Shown here piece by piece: positions 850 through 9,473 of a stretch of 64,000 nucleotides of DNA. The notes beneath the pieces are model-generated. The model ran no database searches. It was not told the DNA's origin and saw only the letters and a list, made by a program, of their open reading frames with translations. The stretch's first letter is position 1. The number at the start of each line of letters is the position of its first letter. Origin of the DNA: Nitrosopumilus sp. (GTDB lineage: Archaea; Thermoproteota; Nitrososphaeria; Nitrososphaerales; Nitrosopumilaceae); NCBI GenBank assembly GCA_965219345.1, contig OZ244732.1, positions 288,001 through 352,000 of the forward strand. Reading direction: 5' to 3'. The translations under genes and the position numbers were made by a program.

Positions 850-1130
850 TAATATTTTTCAAAAAAATAATTAATTTTCATTTTTGAGATCAGAAAACCA
901 GTTTTTATTAGAAAAGTTAACCCGTGGATTTTTATATCGTAATATTTTTGGTAAAATATGGCAAAACTCAAGTGTGGGGATTATGGTTTTGAGTGTGATT
1001 TTGTAGCCGAAGGGGAGATGGAAGAAGTTATTGAAAATTTTAGGACACACACGGATGATGTGCATGGGATAGATTATTCTAAGGAAGCCGTAATGCAGTT
1101 TCTCTTAAGAAAACAAGGCATTTAATAGAA

Positions 1131-2207
1131 TTAAGCATCAAATCTTTTCATTGTTGCAGATAAAATAGGAACTTCTTTTGTAATAATTTTTTCAACTGCA
1201 GGTACAATGTTTATTCTAGCTTTAACACTTTCTTCATAAATTTCATAAATTTGATCTCTAAACAGTAATTTAATTCCAGGAAGTGCAGTAATGCCTTCTT
1301 CAACAGTTCTAGGATCTGACAAATCTAAAATCAGTGTGCCTTTTTTCTTTTCCTCCATAATCAATCGAATTCTATCATAGGTGATTAAGAAATAATCACA
1401 TGTTGTTGCAACAAAGATAATATCATATTTATCAAAACCGGCCAAAACATCGTTAAAGTCAACAGGATTTCCACTCAATAGTGTTGTAAATCCAGTTGCA
1501 CGATCAATTGTTCTACTCGTTACATCAAAGTCAATGCCTCTTTTTTTCAAAGCTTTTGCAACCATAGCAGCAGGCTCACCAGTGCCAATAATCAATACTT
1601 TTTTCTTGGCATCAAGTCCCGCTTTCTCATCTACTAGTTTTATTGCAACATCACCGAGAGAGGTAACTTCTTTTGCGATTCCGGTTGTATCTCTCATTCT
1701 GAGAGATAATCTAATTACGCTTTCAAATAATTTATTAAGAATTTTGCCAGAGACGCCTGCGCTCTTTGCCTTAGCTAATGAGAGTACAATCTCATCAAAT
1801 ATTTCTTGTTTTCCAATAACAGGAGAATCCAATCCAGATGCTAAACGTAACAGGTGAAGATATACATCATCCCCTTTGTATACTTCAAGAGTTTGATCAA
1901 AATGATCAATATCATTCTGTTCCAGTGAAGACAGAGGTATCCAAGTATCTTTAATTTGATTTAACACAAGAGTTCTTCCTTCAGGCCTCCGTGCATCAGG
2001 AGAATCAGAAGTTTCAACATTGCTTACTAAAAAGATTTCAACCCTACTTGCCGTTTGAATAATGATACATTCATCAACGCCAGAAATTTTTTTGAATTCT
2101 TCAGATGCTGCAATTACATCTTTAAAAGTAAATTTTGCCAATGCATGTAGAGGTACATTTTTGAAAGTGACCCTTGCATTCATTACATCGAAACTTACTT
2201 GACTCAA
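1131..2207 (-). CDS. Glutamyl-tRNA reductase (HemA)-like paralog lacking the catalytic Cys
   Basis: HLLRLASGLDS, Rossmann IGTGE, ILDLSDPR; the canonical TCNR motif reads TASR; C-terminus short. Confidence 0.85.
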   Translation of the reverse strand: MSQVSFDVMNARVTFKNVPLHALAKFTFKDVIAASEEFKKISGVDECIIIQTASRVEIFLVSNVETSDSPDARRPEGRTLVLNQIKDTWIPLSSLEQNDIDHFDQTLEVYKGDDVYLHLLRLASGLDSPVIGKQEIFDEIVLSLAKAKSAGVSGKILNKLFESVIRLSLRMRDTTGIAKEVTSLGDVAIKLVDEKAGLDAKKKVLIIGTGEPAAMVAKALKKRGIDFDVTSRTIDRATGFTTLLSGNPVDFNDVLAGFDKYDIIFVATTCDYFLITYDRIRLIMEEKKKGTLILDLSDPRTVEEGITALPGIKLLFRDQIYEIYEESVKARINIVPAVEKIITKEVPILSATMKRFDA

Positions 2208-2217
2208 ATCATCACCA

Positions 2218-2916
2218 TTAAGATTTTATCTTCTCCCGTCCACCTTTTGCAGTTCGGAAAACATTCATTCCAATGAAAAAATTTTCATGTAACGATTTTA
2301 AATAAATGATATCATTCTCAGTATTTTGGATTTGTTTTTCAGTAGCTTCTGGATCATTTTTTAATTTTTCAAGTCTTTGATTTGTTTCCTCTAAAAAGTC
2401 ATCTACTCCGCGTTCATAATTTGAAACACCAGCATACTCAGGGCTAAGAACATGCTCAGGAATATAATCAGGAGTTACATCCTGGAACTTCTCAGCTTTT
2501 CTTGTAATAGATTCCTGTTCTTCTGCTGAAAGAATTGGCCGTGGGAATCGGTCTTCCTTCTCTAACCAAAATTCTGGTTCGCCCATCTCTCGTCTGAAGA
2601 TTTCCTCACTTTGTCTCTTAAACGTGTGAGCAGGGCCCTTCGCTTCGTCTTCTTTTACTTCATCAGCAATTGCCTTGTATTCTGCTTCTGCTGCAGCTTC
2701 CGCTTTTTCTTTTGCAGCTGCTGCTTTTGCAACAGCTTTTTGTAGCGCAATTTCTGCTTTTTCAGCTGCTTTAGCTGCCGTCTCTGCTTTCGCTGCTGCG
2801 TTAGTTGACACTTTAGTTTCTTTTTTTGTAGTTTTTTCTGTTGACGGTTTTCCGGATGATGAATCTTCGGTAGTTTTTTCTTCTACTTTAGATTCTTTTT
2901 CTTCCTCAGACATCAA
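2218..2916 (-). CDS. Hypothetical protein with Ala/Lys/Glu-rich low-complexity N-terminus
   Basis: 232-aa ORF ending 10 nt before the hemA-like start, likely co-transcribed. Confidence 0.75.
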   Translation of the reverse strand: MMSEEEKESKVEEKTTEDSSSGKPSTEKTTKKETKVSTNAAAKAETAAKAAEKAEIALQKAVAKAAAAKEKAEAAAEAEYKAIADEVKEDEAKGPAHTFKRQSEEIFRREMGEPEFWLEKEDRFPRPILSAEEQESITRKAEKFQDVTPDYIPEHVLSPEYAGVSNYERGVDDFLEETNQRLEKLKNDPEATEKQIQNTENDIIYLKSLHENFFIGMNVFRTAKGGREKIKS

Positions 2917-3056
2917 AATTTACTATTGTTGCCTGAATTTTAATATTCTTGTGTGAAAAATCATTCATCATTTCTTTTTTGAATAATAATATCTGCAAAT
3001 ATCATTCTGATTGGTAGTAAAATGATTTTTAGCTAACTGAATTTTGTAAAAATTAT

Positions 3057-3071
3057 GGCGCCCTTGGTGGG
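3057..3071 (-). repeat. Degenerate att site: copy of tRNA-Asp 3' end
   Basis: ggcgcccttggtggg versus ggcgccctcggcggg at 5830-5844 (13/15 identical, same orientation). Confidence 0.6.
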
Positions 3072-3341
3072 TTCATGTCTTGTAGAATGGCGCCCTGCAC
3101 TAATTATTGTCAAACCAGTTTGATCGCTCATACTTAGTATAGTATAGTGACTGAGCTTTTGATATGGGTTGTGTTTTGGTTATTGTGTGATAACCTGTAA
3201 CATCAAATGTGAATATGCAGACAAAATACAGGGAATTTTTTTTTAGCTGATCCTATAGATCACAAGCTAGTTACATGCATCAAGATTGTTTTTAATATCA
3301 CATATACAATAACAAATCATGTTGCATGACGGTAACATTAC

Positions 3342-4826
3342 ATGAAAGAAAATACAAAATCTCCAGAGCTATTCATCGGACTGACTGGAGCAGTAGGAAC
3401 CGATCTAGATAAAATCTCTAAAATGTTTGATAAAAAGCTGCAGACGTTGGGGTATGCTACAGAAGTTATTGTCCTGAGCAAACTCCTAGGAATGATCAAA
3501 GGATTGGTGAATGATTATGACCTGCAAGACGAGTATGCTAGGATTATGGCACTGATGGATGCAGGGGACAAATTCAGACAAAAAACTGGGACGGGTAATG
3601 CATTGATCAAACTTGCCATACCTTATGTGATCAATATTCGAAACAAGATGAAGGGTTCCAATGACTCCAACTGCAGACAGGCCTACATATTCAAGTCACT
3701 AAAACACGTAAAAGAAGTACAAAAACTGCGCCAGGTATACGGTAAGAATTTTTGGCTTGTCTCTGTCTACTCACCGCACAATATTAGATCCAAACATCTA
3801 GCAGAGAAGATTTCAAACAGTAACAAAAACAATTCTGATGAGTATGTGATGAAACTGATAAAACGTGATGAACATGACAGTACAAATCCACTAGGACAAA
3901 ACGTCAGAGATACATTCTCAGAAGCTGATGTATTTCTCAATATGGAGTTAGATCTTGATGAATCGATTGACAAGTTTGTGGAGCTCTTGTTTGAAAATAC
4001 ACTAAACACCCCAACTACTGAGGAATCTGGAATGATGCACGCCTTTACTGCCTCCATGGCATCCTCCTCATTATCTAGGCAAGTCGGTGCCTCAATACTT
4101 ACAAAATTAGGTGATTTGATATCTACTGGAGTCAACGAGGTTCCCAAGGCACGTGGTGGACACTATGTTGTTGGAGATATCAACGATGCAAGGGAATGGA
4201 AGCTCGGTTATGACTCTAACACACGCAAAAAGACAGAGGCACTTACTGAATTTTTGACTAAGCTAGATGAGGAAAAATGGCTGTCAGATCATGTCTCAAG
4301 ATCGAATATGACTGCAAAGGCCTTGGAATCAAAACAAATCAGAGGTTCTGCATTTCTTAATCTGATAGAGTATGGAAGGGAAGTGCATGCAGAAATGTCG
4401 GCCCTCATGAGTGCACTACGTATTGGAATCTCAGTCAAAGGATGTACGATGTATTGTACAACTTTTCCATGTCACATCTGTGCCAAGCACATAATTGCAA
4501 GCGGGATCTCAAAACTAGTCTACATAGAACCTTATCCCAAGAGTCTGGCAAAAGAACTATACTATGATTCGATTACGGTGGATGAGGACATAATAAGAGA
4601 CAAAGTTCAGTTTAATCCGTTCATAGGAGTATCTCCCAGACGGCATATGGAGTTGTTCAGAATGTTAAAGAGAAAAGATAAAGATGGAAATAGCATAACA
4701 TGGAATCCAGATGATGCAGTCCTCAGATATGTAGAACCCACTGTGCCTTATAACAAAGAGCAACAGGAGGTCAATCAACTAGAAAAAATACTGTCCGATC
4801 AAGGATTAGAACTTGAAGAATATTGA
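3342..4826 (+). CDS. Anti-phage dCTP deaminase (P-loop kinase + Zn deaminase; Dcd/AvcD-like)
   Basis: N-terminal IGLTGAVGTD P-loop; SSSLSRQVGA, GVNEVPK, HAEMSAL, TTFPCHICAKHII, YIEPYPKS motifs. Confidence 0.9.
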   Translation: MKENTKSPELFIGLTGAVGTDLDKISKMFDKKLQTLGYATEVIVLSKLLGMIKGLVNDYDLQDEYARIMALMDAGDKFRQKTGTGNALIKLAIPYVINIRNKMKGSNDSNCRQAYIFKSLKHVKEVQKLRQVYGKNFWLVSVYSPHNIRSKHLAEKISNSNKNNSDEYVMKLIKRDEHDSTNPLGQNVRDTFSEADVFLNMELDLDESIDKFVELLFENTLNTPTTEESGMMHAFTASMASSSLSRQVGASILTKLGDLISTGVNEVPKARGGHYVVGDINDAREWKLGYDSNTRKKTEALTEFLTKLDEEKWLSDHVSRSNMTAKALESKQIRGSAFLNLIEYGREVHAEMSALMSALRIGISVKGCTMYCTTFPCHICAKHIIASGISKLVYIEPYPKSLAKELYYDSITVDEDIIRDKVQFNPFIGVSPRRHMELFRMLKRKDKDGNSITWNPDDAVLRYVEPTVPYNKEQQEVNQLEKILSDQGLELEEY

Positions 4827-4864
4827 CCAAATATTATTATAAGAAACCAGTCTTTCTGTATTGT

Positions 4865-4975
4865 ATGCAGTCATTACAAAAAGGATGGTTGGAAAAAGTA
4901 TTCAAAGACGCAGCCGAAGCAGTGGCAAAAATGCCAAAGGAAGAACGCGAATACTATGAACAGCATTCCAACTAG
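4865..4975 (+). CDS. Small 36-aa ORF (MQSLQKGWLEKVFKDAAEAVAKMPKEEREYYEQHSN)
   Basis: ATG..TAG, TATA-like attattataa about 25-30 nt upstream, amphipathic helix pattern; not in ORF track. Confidence 0.5.
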   Translation: MQSLQKGWLEKVFKDAAEAVAKMPKEEREYYEQHSN

Positions 4976-5027
4976 ATTCTCTGTATTTTAGATTACAATC
5001 ACTGTTTTCTTATGTTTGTTGCATAAC

Positions 5028-5178
5028 GGCTCTGTAGCGTTATGGTGACCTGAAATATGATCTTCTCTGAATTGAAAATTTATTTATTCAGTAGCCTTGT
5101 TCAAAGAAGCATTTTGTATGATCGTCTTCCACTTGTTAGCGTCCTCAACCTCAATCTTTGAGGCCTGCACGGGTGTCT
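5028..5178 (-). mobile_element. IS6-family right-end remnant (transposase C-terminus + terminal IR)
   Basis: Encodes TPVQASKIEVEDANKWKTIIQNASL, matching TPAQASMIEVDGLNKWKTIIQNASL at 43381..43623; IR ggctctgtagcgtta at 5028. Confidence 0.85.
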
Positions 5179-5854
5179 CACCCACTCTAAACGCACCTTC
5201 AAACAAAACCCAGAACATTGCCCTGTCATGTCTGTTTGATATCTGTCCCAGAATTGAAACTATTTCATCTGATGTAAGAAGATCCTGAGATCTTACTGTC
5301 TGCTCGTTTCTGTCAATGTATCTAGACGGTTTTATCCAAGACACTTCTTGCACATACGGGTTCTCATCACGGTCTCCAATCTCTCCGGTCTTGGCGTAAT
5401 GTACAAGACGCAGCATCGTCATGGCGTATGCCTTTTTTGTCTCGCCCTTGTATGATTCATTGGATATTATATCAGACAATACTGATTCACAATCATTCTT
5501 TGTAGCAGCTTCAAGCAGTACTGGCGCATCAAACTTTGTGTTAAACAATCTTAGAATCAGTGTCAGTCTGTCTGCATAGTAGACTATTCTACCGTCTTTT
5601 TTTCCCGCAAGCTTTAGCTTTTCTAGAAATCTGACTGCAACGTCTCCCTGCTGTGTCTGTCCAAGTCTTTTCTTTATGCGACACAGCTTGCCTGCATAGT
5701 TGTGGATATCATCTGGATTTTTTCTAGTCAAAGGTACGGACAAAGATTGATCGGTATTTAAGCCAGTTTTTTTGCGGGATTTCTTTTTTCTAGAACTGCT
5801 CCCTTTGTGGGAACCGGAAAAAATGTCAAGGCGCCCTCGGCGGGATTTGAACAC
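5084..5854 (-). pseudogene. Truncated tyrosine integrase fused to IS6 transposase tail
   Basis: HDRAMFWVLFEGAFRVGE box I with catalytic Arg, then abrupt switch to IS6 sequence; HxxR and Tyr motifs missing; ORF begins inside tRNA-Asp. Confidence 0.8.
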
Positions 5855-5906
5855 GCGTCTCAGCCGTGACAGGGCCGAATTCTAGACCAGGCTATACTAC
5901 AAGGGC
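5832..5906 (-). tRNA. tRNA-Asp (GTC)
   Basis: GCCCTTG..CGAGGGC-G acceptor, loop CT-GTC-AC, TTCAAAT T-loop (one T-stem mismatch). Confidence 0.92.
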
Positions 5907-6002
5907 ACAAGTACTTTGAATCAAATTGCTAGATTAAAAGTTTCGGTCACAACAAAAAATTTTGTAAAAGACTAAATTATACACTCAAAGCATTTTTCAT
6001 AA

Positions 6003-6076
6003 GGGTCTATGGCGCAGCCAGGTAGCGCACCGGACTTTTAATCCGGTTGTCGAGGGTCCGAATCCCTCTAGACCCG
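6003..6076 (+). tRNA. tRNA-Lys (TTT)
   Basis: GGGTCTA..TAGACCC acceptor; CCGGA-CTTTTAA-TCCGG anticodon arm. Confidence 0.93.
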
Positions 6077-6095
6077 CTACTTTTCTTTATAAAAA

Positions 6096-7556
6096 TTATC
6101 GAATTATTTCATTAACCTGTTTTTCCAAGTTTGTAATAGATGAGTTGATTTTATTTTCTCTGTTAGTAATAGTTGTTCTATAGTTGTTAATCTTTTGAAT
6201 TCTATCAGAAATCATTCTTTTTTGTTCATCATATCCTGAGGAACCATATGATTTTCTCTCCTTTAGAGAGGAGGCAACAGTTGTAGAAGAGATAATTTTT
6301 GAAACGATTTTTGGATTAACTTTAGTGCCAACCACAGATTTTTTAATTTCTGTTGGAGTCAGTTTTGAAATAGGTTTTTTTGAGTTATATGCTAATTGTA
6401 CTAATATGCCTGCAATTTTATGCGTCACTCTAAATGGGATTCCCTCTTGAACTAATTTTTCAGTAATATCTAGTGCAATAAGATTACTTGATTCAGTAAC
6501 TTTTTTCATTTGTTTTTCATTTACTTTCAAAGTGAGGAGCATTGATTTTAAAATTAACAATGCACTGATAGATATTTTTGATGTGGACCAAATAGATGAT
6601 TTTATTTGTTGTAAATCACGTCCATAACCTGTTGCCAGACCTTTGATAGTTGTTAGAATTGCTGTCAAGTTTCCAATAACTTCAGCAGTTTTACCTCTTG
6701 TTAATTCTAAAATATCTGGATTCCTCTTTTGAGGCATTACGCTTGAGGGAGATGTAAATTCATCAGACAATTCAATAAAAGAAAATTCAGATGTGGACCA
6801 GAGTACAAAATCTTCAGATATCCTACTTAAATTAGTCATCAAAATTGAAATCATTGCAACATATTCTGCCACAAAATCACGTGTACTTGTTGCATCAATA
6901 GAATTCTCAACAAGATCATCAAAGCCTAACATCTTTGCAGTACTATGTCTATCAATTGGGATGCTTGTTCCTCCAATAGGTCCTGCACCAAGTGGACTTT
7001 GGTTAACTCGTTCAAAAGTTCCATAAAGTCGTTGAAAATCTCTAGACAAAACATCTGCATGTGCCAAAAGATAATGAGAGAAAAGGCCTGCTTGAGCTTG
7101 TTGAAGATGAGTATAAAGGGGCATGATTGTTTTCTGGTGATTTTTAGCCACAGAAACTAGAGTTTCCATAGTATCCAAAAGACAGTTGCAAACAATATTG
7201 ATGTCGTCTCTAATTTTCATTCTAATATCTAAAACAACTTGATCGTTGCGTGATCTTGCAGTATGCATCTTTCCTCCACTAGCCATACCAGCCTTTTTGA
7301 TGACTAGTGATTCAACCAATTCATGAATGTCCTCTGCTCCAGACGATGAATCAAATTTTTCTTTTTTCAAATGTTTTAAAGCTAACAAGATTTTTTTTGC
7401 ATCATTTTTTGTTATGATGTTTTTTTGGTATAACATCAAAGTGTGAGCTTGGCTTCCAATAATATCATAGAGTGCAATTTCAAAATCATCATCCATTGAT
7501 GAAACGTAATCCAAAGTAATACCGCTCAAATCATTTCCAAGACGTGAACGATACAT
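6096..7556 (-). CDS. argH: Argininosuccinate lyase
   Basis: HTARSRNDQ, YTHLQQAQ, SSVMPQKRNPD signature. Confidence 0.96.
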   Translation of the reverse strand: MYRSRLGNDLSGITLDYVSSMDDDFEIALYDIIGSQAHTLMLYQKNIITKNDAKKILLALKHLKKEKFDSSSGAEDIHELVESLVIKKAGMASGGKMHTARSRNDQVVLDIRMKIRDDINIVCNCLLDTMETLVSVAKNHQKTIMPLYTHLQQAQAGLFSHYLLAHADVLSRDFQRLYGTFERVNQSPLGAGPIGGTSIPIDRHSTAKMLGFDDLVENSIDATSTRDFVAEYVAMISILMTNLSRISEDFVLWSTSEFSFIELSDEFTSPSSVMPQKRNPDILELTRGKTAEVIGNLTAILTTIKGLATGYGRDLQQIKSSIWSTSKISISALLILKSMLLTLKVNEKQMKKVTESSNLIALDITEKLVQEGIPFRVTHKIAGILVQLAYNSKKPISKLTPTEIKKSVVGTKVNPKIVSKIISSTTVASSLKERKSYGSSGYDEQKRMISDRIQKINNYRTTITNRENKINSSITNLEKQVNEIIR

Positions 7557-7929: not shown

Positions 7930-8693
7930 CTTCTAAATCCCAACAAATAGCCCCTAAGTAGTTGTATTCCCATCGCAGGATCAACGCCTTTGGGACATAC
8001 TTGACTACAAGAACCAGCAAAGTGGCATCTCCATATTCCATGAGATTCATCAATCATCTTAAGCCTGGAATCTTTGCCCTTATCTCTACTATCTGCGACA
8101 TATCGGTATGCTTGAGCTAATGCTTGCGGTCCAACAAATGAAGAATCTGTTGCCATTGTAGGACATGCAGAATTACACAAACCACATTTGATACAATTAG
8201 CAAATTGGATGTATTGTTCTACTTCTTCAGGAGATTGTAAGAATTCTTTTGTATCAGATTCTAGTTCAGTATCATCTCGGATAAGATATGGCTTGATTTT
8301 ATGATGAGTGTCAAACAATCTTTCAAACTTTACAGCCAAATCACGAATAATTGGAAAGTTGCTCATAGGTTCAACTGTAACAACATTAGAGTTTAGTTCA
8401 CTAATTTTTGTAAAACATGCAAGTCTTGGTTTTCCATTAATCATCATTCCGCATGAGCCACAGGTTGCTTGTCTACAAGAGTGGCGAACTGCTACTGAAT
8501 GATCAAAGTGTTCTTTGACATAAAGAATTGCTTCTAGAACAGTTGTCCATTTCTGATATGGGACAATAAACTCCATTAATACACTTGAATCATCATGTTC
8601 AGGATTATATCTTGAAATTCTAAGTGTGATTGATTTAGAAGAAGATAGTGATGTTGATGCTTGTTCGTCTGCGATGCCAGACACCTGTGCCAT
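7926..8693 (-). CDS. sdhB: Succinate dehydrogenase Fe-S subunit
   Basis: SCRQATCGSC, CIKCGLCNSACP, CHFAGSCSQVCP. Confidence 0.95.
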   Translation of the reverse strand: MAQVSGIADEQASTSLSSSKSITLRISRYNPEHDDSSVLMEFIVPYQKWTTVLEAILYVKEHFDHSVAVRHSCRQATCGSCGMMINGKPRLACFTKISELNSNVVTVEPMSNFPIIRDLAVKFERLFDTHHKIKPYLIRDDTELESDTKEFLQSPEEVEQYIQFANCIKCGLCNSACPTMATDSSFVGPQALAQAYRYVADSRDKGKDSRLKMIDESHGIWRCHFAGSCSQVCPKGVDPAMGIQLLRGYLLGFRS

Positions 8694-8695
8694 TT

Positions 8696-9040
8696 CTATG
8701 CCATCCCCATGTTAACTACAATAATTGTTCTTGAACCGTATGCTATTAATCCAATCATTGCAGCTAGACAACCATAAGAAACAGCTTTTTCATAAATTCT
8801 TCCTTGTTTTAATTCCAATAAAATAACTCTAAGACCATTAAATCCATGAATTGAAAGCAAGACAAGTATTAATTCCAACATTATAGCATACGGAACGAAT
8901 TTGTAGTTGGCAAGAACACTTTCAAACTCCAAGGATTCTGCAAATCCCTGCGTAAGCCGCATCAAAACGTGAACTGCCACTAGGGCTACTGCTGCAATGG
9001 CAGTTCCATAGTGAATTTTCATGATTGTGCTTTCTCTCAT
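8696..9040 (-). CDS. sdhD: Succinate dehydrogenase membrane anchor subunit D
   Basis: Three TM helices, HGFNGLRVIL, operon position. Confidence 0.85.
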   Translation of the reverse strand: MRESTIMKIHYGTAIAAVALVAVHVLMRLTQGFAESLEFESVLANYKFVPYAIMLELILVLLSIHGFNGLRVILLELKQGRIYEKAVSYGCLAAMIGLIAYGSRTIIVVNMGMA

Positions 9041-9041
9041 C

Positions 9042-9473
9042 CTATTCACCAAGCATTACCGCTAGCCCATACATCATTGCAAATGCTGCAAGAACAATTG
9101 CAGAATAGATGCCTATCTTGTGTCTGTAATTTTGTGATGCTGGTTCATATGGATAATCAGGTCTAGCAGGTTTTCCCACACCAACTCCTCCATGTCCTAA
9201 CATCACTCTAATTCCATTAACAGTGTGAAATACACACATTCCAATTACAATTGCCAAAATAGCATGTCCTTCAGTAGTTGACGTCATTTCCATCAGTTCA
9301 TCCCACCCAACTTGTCCTCTCAAAATATTACTTGTTTCATAAATATGAGCTACAAAATATGCCAGTAATCCTAATCCACTTAATCGCATTAGCCAATATG
9401 CAACTCGTTCGATTCCATAGCGACGTGGATTTGCCATCCCTCCAATGCCCTCTTTGTGCTCGTCTTGGGTCAT
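9042..9473 (-). CDS. sdhC: Succinate dehydrogenase cytochrome b subunit C
   Basis: RLSGLGL, FHTVNGIR, TM helices, operon position. Confidence 0.88.
   Translation of the reverse strand: MTQDEHKEGIGGMANPRRYGIERVAYWLMRLSGLGLLAYFVAHIYETSNILRGQVGWDELMEMTSTTEGHAILAIVIGMCVFHTVNGIRVMLGHGGVGVGKPARPDYPYEPASQNYRHKIGIYSAIVLAAFAMMYGLAVMLGE

Follow-up and report, generated by a model that had tools for sequence, protein, structure and literature searches.

In the window analysed here, a 64,000-nucleotide stretch of genomic DNA from the ammonia-oxidising archaeon Nitrosopumilus sp., a gene for an anti-phage dCTP deaminase is followed on the same strand by an open reading frame (ORF) for a mini-protein of 36 amino acids (aa). 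On sequence evidence, the mini-protein is a conserved, unnamed second component of the deaminase locus, and the locus is best explained as a virus-defence module of two genes that remains from an integrative element at a tRNA-Asp gene. We propose, with a probability of roughly 0.45, that the peptide is a regulatory, inhibitory partner of the deaminase, acting in place of the AvcI RNA of AvcID systems. The module comprises:

3342-4826, forward strand: anti-phage dCTP deaminase, 494 aa, with an N-terminal kinase-like domain and a C-terminal zinc deaminase domain.
4835-4843, forward strand: TATA-like box TATTATAAG of the small gene, about 22-30 nt before its ATG.
4865-4975, forward strand: small protein of 36 aa from a conserved, unnamed family (ATG at 4865 to TAG at 4975), identified by conservation and position.

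The deaminase frame is open and full length, and its product scores 445.6 bits with NCBIfam NF041025 ("anti-phage dCTP deaminase"), above the curated cut-off of 400, with enzyme residues 9-443 aligned to positions 1-434 of the 437-position profile. The PADLOC dCTPase model PDLC02373 also matches (E 5.8e-146), as does Pfam PF00383 over residues 228-395 (E 3.6e-17). In an alignment of the window enzyme with ten archaeal homologs, H349-A350-E351 and P376-C377-x-x-C380 are invariant, in line with the original prediction of a full-length deaminase with an intact HAE..PCxxC motif, and the zinc and catalytic motifs align with those of T4 dCMP deaminase. The glycine-rich N-terminal motif GLTGAVGTDL (residues 13-22, of which G19, D21 and L22 are invariant in the same 11 sequences) is, we assume, not a canonical Walker A motif with lysine; the kinase-like domain has a weak sequence match to a Sulfolobus adenylate-kinase-related protein. 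A sequence search of the PDB returned no solved full-length relative of the enzyme. An AlphaFold2 (AF2) model of a bacterial relative, with a predicted local distance difference test score (pLDDT) of 91.6, resembles dCMP deaminases in its C-terminal half (Foldseek E about 2e-7) and the adenylate-kinase-related proteins 3h0k/3lw7 in its N-terminal half (E 6e-5). Judged by these matches, the window enzyme is an archaeal member of the known anti-phage dCTP deaminase family, ordinary except for its host, and by analogy with characterised relatives it would convert dCTP to dUTP and so starve viral DNA synthesis. All Nitrososphaerota deaminases formed one group (support 98) among bacterial sequences in a FastTree tree; as its root was placed at the midpoint, the tree is not read for a direction of transfer.

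The small ORF is nested in a 50-aa TTG-started frame (4823-4975). In a close relative the corresponding frame closes two codons ahead of the ATG, and the conserved version is therefore the one of 36 aa. A distance of 22-30 nt between box and start codon is that of an archaeal promoter of a leaderless mRNA. The original prediction had given this ORF a TATA-like box of its own, and 11 of 12 archaeal copies have a similar T/A-rich box 22-30 nt 5' of their start codon (by eye). The box thus probably functions as the promoter of the small gene, with a spacing that fits a leaderless transcript.

Short ORFs that share a pattern with the window peptide (G-W at positions 7-8, P at position 24, total length 34-43 aa) follow the deaminase in 11 of 16 archaeal deaminase loci, the window included, and begin 38-243 nt 3' of the deaminase stop codon. 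A patterned ORF was not found after the deaminase in loci L033, L040 and L046, and L002 and L003 have small ORFs at the corresponding place without the pattern. We searched a profile of 12 archaeal peptide copies against all six frames of 401 genomes of the family, and it matched 14 of them, three weakly (E 1.5e-5 to 0.005). Full-length deaminase homologs are present in 11 of the 401 genomes (4 of the 98 other genomes of the genus). Both peptide and deaminase are carried by ten genomes; the eleventh deaminase genome (G015) has a stop codon inside the deaminase gene, and G410 lacks a deaminase but has the peptide. The exact 36-aa sequence is absent from a collection of 15 billion proteins, an indirect check of its annotation, and the window peptide had no usable match in the Protein Atlas.

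Comparison of the window peptide with six diverged archaeal copies gave ratios of nonsynonymous to synonymous substitution rates (dN/dS) of 0.08-0.22. Synonymous sites were saturated in two further archaeal copies, and very close or intermediate pairs were noisier, with dN/dS up to 0.8. The amino-acid motif of the peptide persists among genomes that differ widely in base composition and whose flanking DNA is unalignable, and RNA of the peptide region folds no better than shuffled sequences (z +0.33). These patterns indicate that the small ORF is protein-coding and under purifying selection.

To the original prediction, conservation of the peptide next to deaminase homologs was a test set beforehand, and it is found in archaea and at least ten bacterial phyla, including natural fusions, a wider range than that prediction had anticipated. 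Our wider sample consisted of the best 80 of 561 confirmed deaminase relatives, drawn from Nitrososphaerota and those bacterial phyla. In a first pass, a profile built from archaeal copies only matched 25 of the 80 loci, 11 of them bacterial, and every match lay on the deaminase strand, directly 3' of the gene or within arrays that follow. Four rounds of iteration raised the number of matched loci to 54 of 80, a figure that is not independent, since the iterated profile was trained on its own matches; the first-pass count and the zero counts in the control windows are independent. In equal-sized windows, the iterated profile matched as follows:

Downstream of the deaminase, same strand: 53 of 80 loci.
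Downstream, opposite strand: 0 of 80 loci.
Upstream, same strand: 0 of 77 loci.
A further 1.5-2 kb downstream: 3 of 74 loci, all tandem arrays.

Bacterial copies are 42-79 aa long and consist of the conserved helix at the N-terminus followed by a polar tail. Their start codons lie between 145 nt before and 161 nt after the deaminase stop codon, most within about 30 nt of it, and the genes overlap or abut that stop codon as in coupled operons. At two loci (L113 and L166) the peptide gene is divergent and upstream of the deaminase. In three bacterial loci of one clade (L118, L132 and L159), the motif is fused in frame to the C-terminus of the deaminase through a linker of about 20 residues, and AF2 models the helix of the fused tail with a pLDDT of 92-95. 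The PADLOC dCTPase model stops short of this tail and so does not contain the motif in hidden form. A word-index search returned no fused or longer forms among 8000 candidates, which is weak evidence. Among cultured bacteria, Thalassospira tepidiphila and Reyranella sp. have the deaminase-peptide pair.

Searching 1.84 billion representatives with the profile returned 774 clusters of mini-proteins at E values up to 0.001. Most of these proteins are 42-100 aa long and begin with the motif, and tandem pairs of motifs occur in a few (P0003, P0012, P0032 and P0074). The core of the family is GWL..x12..P, which in most relatives ends as WPxWK[RK], at a length of 34-79 aa. In one protein of 557 aa (P0139) the motif precedes a TnpB-like (OrfB_IS605) transposase, an arrangement that may be a gene-calling read-through. 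Unrelated long proteins aside, none of the 65 proteins scanned had a significant Pfam family, none of 18 matched NCBIfam, and PADLOC and PHROGs were likewise blank. Where the peptide genes are annotated they are labelled "hypothetical protein", and on a RefSeq plasmid of Vibrio nigripulchritudo the peptide ORF is unannotated. Full-text searches of the open literature turned up no protein partner of a dCTP deaminase or of AvcD.

The original prediction had also proposed modelling the peptide together with the enzyme. The predicted complex of the two scored 0.72 (0.71-0.74 in three runs) against 0.01 for the best control. Of 157 solved complexes 116 attain a score of 0.72, as do 2 of 215 mismatched pairs; these counts hold only roughly for the custom alignments used here. 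The runs agreed in at least 95% of contacts, with a partner pLDDT of 81-82. Predicted contacts involve peptide residues 1-35, centred on 9-20, and on the enzyme residues 41-51, 94-102 and 131 of the kinase-like domain together with residues 470-481 and 491-494 of the C-terminal helix. This predicted site agrees with the natural fusions, in which the motif follows the C-terminus of the enzyme. A PDB sequence search found no comparable solved complex. Binding of the peptide to the enzyme is thus supported as a prediction.

Copies of the peptide gene are often more numerous or better preserved than those of the enzyme. In a genome of the same genus (G390; L078, 5815-7316), one deaminase has three peptide genes behind it, arranged in tandem as 601-nt units that are 96% identical. 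This array, whose period exceeds the longest handled by TRF (500), was found by a repeat search. Each 601-nt unit contains a peptide gene, a TATA box and about 480 nt without a convincing ORF. Arrays of a deaminase 3' fragment plus peptide are present in G112, an uncultured Cenarchaeum sp., and in G093. In the G112 genome (3.2 Mb; L085, L086, L088 and L089) the peptide occurs at least 19 times and the deaminase in many copies, so that a defence gene family is unusually amplified there; its arrays have a period of about 700 nt and very G+C-rich spacers, with deaminase 3' fragments in some units. Intact peptides also stand behind deaminases with internal stop codons (G119 and the second locus of G390) and behind mere deaminase fragments (G061 and G409). 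In G409, an insertion sequence (IS) transposase and restriction-modification genes lie between the intact enzyme and the peptide copies. Taken together, peptide copies outnumber enzymes, occur in tandem and survive beside broken deaminases, a pattern like that of an antidote.

Several features of the G061 loci were recorded in their own right. At L082 (5634-6392, reverse strand), a DUF3800 gene has an N-terminal deaminase fragment on one side and an intact peptide gene on the other, as if substituted for most of the deaminase. At L079, a 1047-nt direct repeat of 93% identity (3418-4464 and 8077-9121), which holds parts of FG-GAP and F420-ligase genes, brackets the deaminase-peptide segment, and short repeats of 60-97 nt occur 5' of both the deaminase and the extra peptide copies. 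We also considered and rejected an integrase identity for ORFs of 333-350 aa that run convergent to orphan peptides; in Pfam they were housekeeping genes or had no match, and none resembles the integrase fragment of the window.

In AvcID, the deaminase gene avcD is preceded by AvcI, a non-coding RNA encoded 5' of it, according to the available text of PMC10511110. We propose that the peptide is the protein counterpart of this RNA. The 36-aa gene would be transcribed from its own TATA box, probably as a leaderless mRNA, and the peptide would form an amphipathic helix docked on the kinase-like domain beside the C-terminal helix of the enzyme. In healthy cells it would hold the enzyme off; upon infection it would be lost or displaced, releasing the deaminase. 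We infer the inhibition, the lability, the trigger and the activity of the enzyme in this archaeon. Still more tentatively, the whole mini-protein family may be the cognate off-switch of a large two-gene subtype of dCTP deaminase in bacteria and ammonia-oxidising archaea, filling the role of the AvcI RNA of Vibrio and E. coli, with tandem amplification tuning its safety.

The original prediction had left room for control by a small protein rather than, or in addition to, an RNA. The first part gains from a conserved protein that is predicted to bind, and the second part found no support. The 266 nt upstream of the deaminase were neither conserved nor alignable with the closest homolog loci and folded no better than shuffles (z -0.57), and an Rfam scan of 2800-6200 returned two tRNAs only, with no match in the region upstream of the deaminase. 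A divergent AvcI-like RNA may nevertheless lie upstream, as AvcI relatives may be too divergent to see.

A number of observations weigh against an inhibitory peptide that belongs to the deaminase. There is no profile match at 26 of the 80 loci (seven of these have a divergent version by eye, an informal count), and the self-training of the iterated profile tempers the higher match count. The peptide copies of L080 and L084 have no detectable deaminase remnant nearby. The predicted interface lies away from the HAE/PCxxC site; an effect on the enzyme would thus have to be allosteric, and it might be activation or no more than stabilisation. The fused forms do not fit a free, rapidly degraded antitoxin and would suit an autoinhibitory tail. 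Archaeal peptides are without the long polar tail of the bacterial ones, and for this reason lability is not suggested by their sequence. Finally, an ORF of 108 nt is a small mutational target, and its survival beside decayed deaminases may be due to chance.

If the peptide does not inhibit, it could be a bound structural or activating subunit, in effect a detached extra C-terminal helix, which we regard as somewhat unlikely. Such a subunit might, with the same reservation, serve in folding, oligomer assembly, nucleotide sensing by the kinase domain or recognition of a viral trigger. The predicted contact on the kinase-like domain and C-terminal helix, off the active site, would suit this role, as would the C-terminal fusions with their confidently modelled tail and the overlap of bacterial peptide genes with the deaminase stop codon, which is seen in obligate two-subunit operons. 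The kinase-like domain is moreover required for defence in the E. coli enzyme, according to the available text of Tal et al. (bioRxiv 10.1101/2021.04.26.441389). An activator would, on the other hand, not be expected to occur as extra and orphan copies or to be kept behind broken deaminases, and whole clades, the tested E. coli enzymes included, are without the peptide. As the same text reports, the E. coli enzymes defend when cloned with their promoter regions; because these relatives defend without a peptide, it is not a universal catalytic requirement.

We think it improbable that the peptide is an independent gene of mobile elements, for instance a DNA-binding or maintenance factor, that travels without touching the deaminase. 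In G409 and G061 several copies are indeed kilobases away from an intact deaminase, the module is found in integrated elements and plasmids, and in P0139 the motif precedes a transposase. The position right after the deaminase is nevertheless fixed across phyla, with no copy elsewhere in the 7.5-kb loci except in arrays; most "orphans" follow deaminase fragments, an IS and restriction-modification genes intervene between enzyme and peptide copies in G409, and the fusions and the predicted binding also speak against an independent gene. That the ORF is untranslated and marks a conserved DNA or RNA element at the deaminase 3' end (a terminator, att site or small RNA) is very improbable: a recombination site could give rise to the arrays of 3' fragment plus ORF, but the dN/dS values, the amino-acid motif kept despite differing base composition and unalignable flanks, the conserved length and start of the ORF, the unremarkable folding of the region and the 774 clusters of such proteins predicted by gene callers all speak for a protein.

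The setting of the module is a remnant island at the tRNA-Asp gene, delimited by these features:

3058-3075, strand not assigned: att repeat at the far island boundary, a degenerate 18-nt copy of the tRNA-Asp 3' end, identified by comparing both ends with the empty site.
5084-5854, reverse strand: truncated tyrosine integrase, N-terminal part only, 256 aa, identified by homolog comparison.
5830-5906, reverse strand: tRNA-Asp (GTC), the integration target (ARAGORN; Rfam tRNA, 43.1 bits).

With both island ends aligned to the empty site of a genome of the same genus, 3058-3075 and 5831-5848 are identical at 15 of 18 bases; this degenerate repeat was found by comparison with empty sites and was missed by a repeat search with a seed of 10. 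Homology on the argH/tRNA side begins exactly at 5830 in 25 other genomes of the genus. On the hemA side (about 1574-3071), the sequence directly abuts 5830 onward in the seven relative loci compared, and the inserted segment is therefore about 3072-5829 (2.8 kb). Its G+C content is 0.37-0.43, against 0.30-0.37 in the flanks. The locus thus shows the features of an archaeal mobile element integrated at a tRNA gene, with a tyrosine integrase beside that gene and, at the far border, a direct repeat of its 3' end that the empty site of relatives does not have.

The integrase ORF overlaps the 3' end of the tRNA-Asp gene. In the database, 29 of its 31 homologs carry PF00589 and have lengths of 247-444 aa (374-444 aa in 26 of them); some are named site-specific integrase of Nitrosopumilus. 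They are 49-83% identical to the 256-aa query and cover only its first 70-79%, and the ORF itself had no match in Pfam, PHROGs or NCBIfam. Measured against these homologs, the integrase of the window lacks its catalytic half, and the element is presumably immobile. The original observation of a destroyed integrase beside an intact enzyme thus holds, on the homolog comparison for the one and the NF041025 score above cut-off for the other.

Two ORFs outside the island were recorded. A 232-aa ORF (2218-2916, reverse strand) with a low-complexity N-terminal half rich in Ala, Lys and Glu had no significant Pfam match; its position is conserved in genomes of the same genus, beside the empty att site. 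Between a ferredoxin-reductase-like gene and hemA lies a 55-aa ORF (958-1125, forward strand) rich in Cys, His, Asp and Glu, which we take to resemble a small metal-binding protein.

Anti-phage dCTP deaminases are listed as single-gene systems or, in AvcID, as an RNA-controlled toxin. The conserved, testable partner provides a candidate control element for a large share of the deaminase family. It was overlooked by annotation owing to its tiny size, which shows that catalogues of defence systems undercount components. For archaea, the module adds a record of nucleotide depletion of the bacterial type, partner included, from nitrifiers of global importance in which defence against viruses has received little study. 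If the inhibitory role is correct, an RNA would control this enzyme in one lineage and a micro-protein in others, and tandem amplification of the peptide gene would be the means by which cells adjust its safety.

The module can be compared with four known systems. Type II toxin-antitoxin pairs include toxin-first gene orders (higBA-like). The likeness to them lies in the gene order, with a small protein encoded right behind an enzyme that may be toxic, in predicted direct binding, and in extra or orphan antidote copies that survive beside decayed toxin genes; a putative binding protein is adjacent at 53 of the 80 loci, the binding being in silico. The peptide differs in having no recognisable DNA-binding domain, in its length of just 34-79 aa and in its occurrence in fused forms.

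The cryptic integrated elements of Thaumarchaeota described by Krupovic et al. (2019; PMC6563490) share integration at a tRNA 3' end, a short direct repeat and a tyrosine integrase beside the tRNA, to judge from the main text of that paper, in which the word "deaminase" is absent. The element in the window differs from them in that only 2.8 kb is left and the integrase is truncated.

The anti-phage dCTP deaminase of Tal et al. (10.1101/2021.04.26.441389; NF041025; PADLOC dCTPase) is the same two-domain enzyme with intact catalytic residues, and its distribution is mobile and sporadic, as here. In the available text of that preprint, and in its model, the system is a single gene with no partner gene mentioned. 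Here, and in most of the 80 relatives, a mini-protein gene follows the enzyme, and the host of the window enzyme is an archaeon.

AvcID, a type III toxin-antitoxin system (PLoS Pathog 2023; PMC10511110, in its available text), is closest in the proposed logic: a related deaminase is likewise kept inactive until infection, by an unstable inhibitor that is lost once host transcription stops. Plasmid loci of E. coli, Klebsiella and V. coralliilyticus are without the peptide. Directly 5' of two such peptide-less deaminases, on an E. coli plasmid (L185, 906-1091) and a Klebsiella plasmid (L188, 124-306), are annotated hypothetical ORFs of 60-61 aa that are alike in their C-terminal halves; they might lie across the AvcI RNA region or encode some other small partner. 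The conserved neighbour of the deaminase described here is, in contrast to the 5' RNA of AvcID, a putative protein-coding gene 3' of the enzyme.

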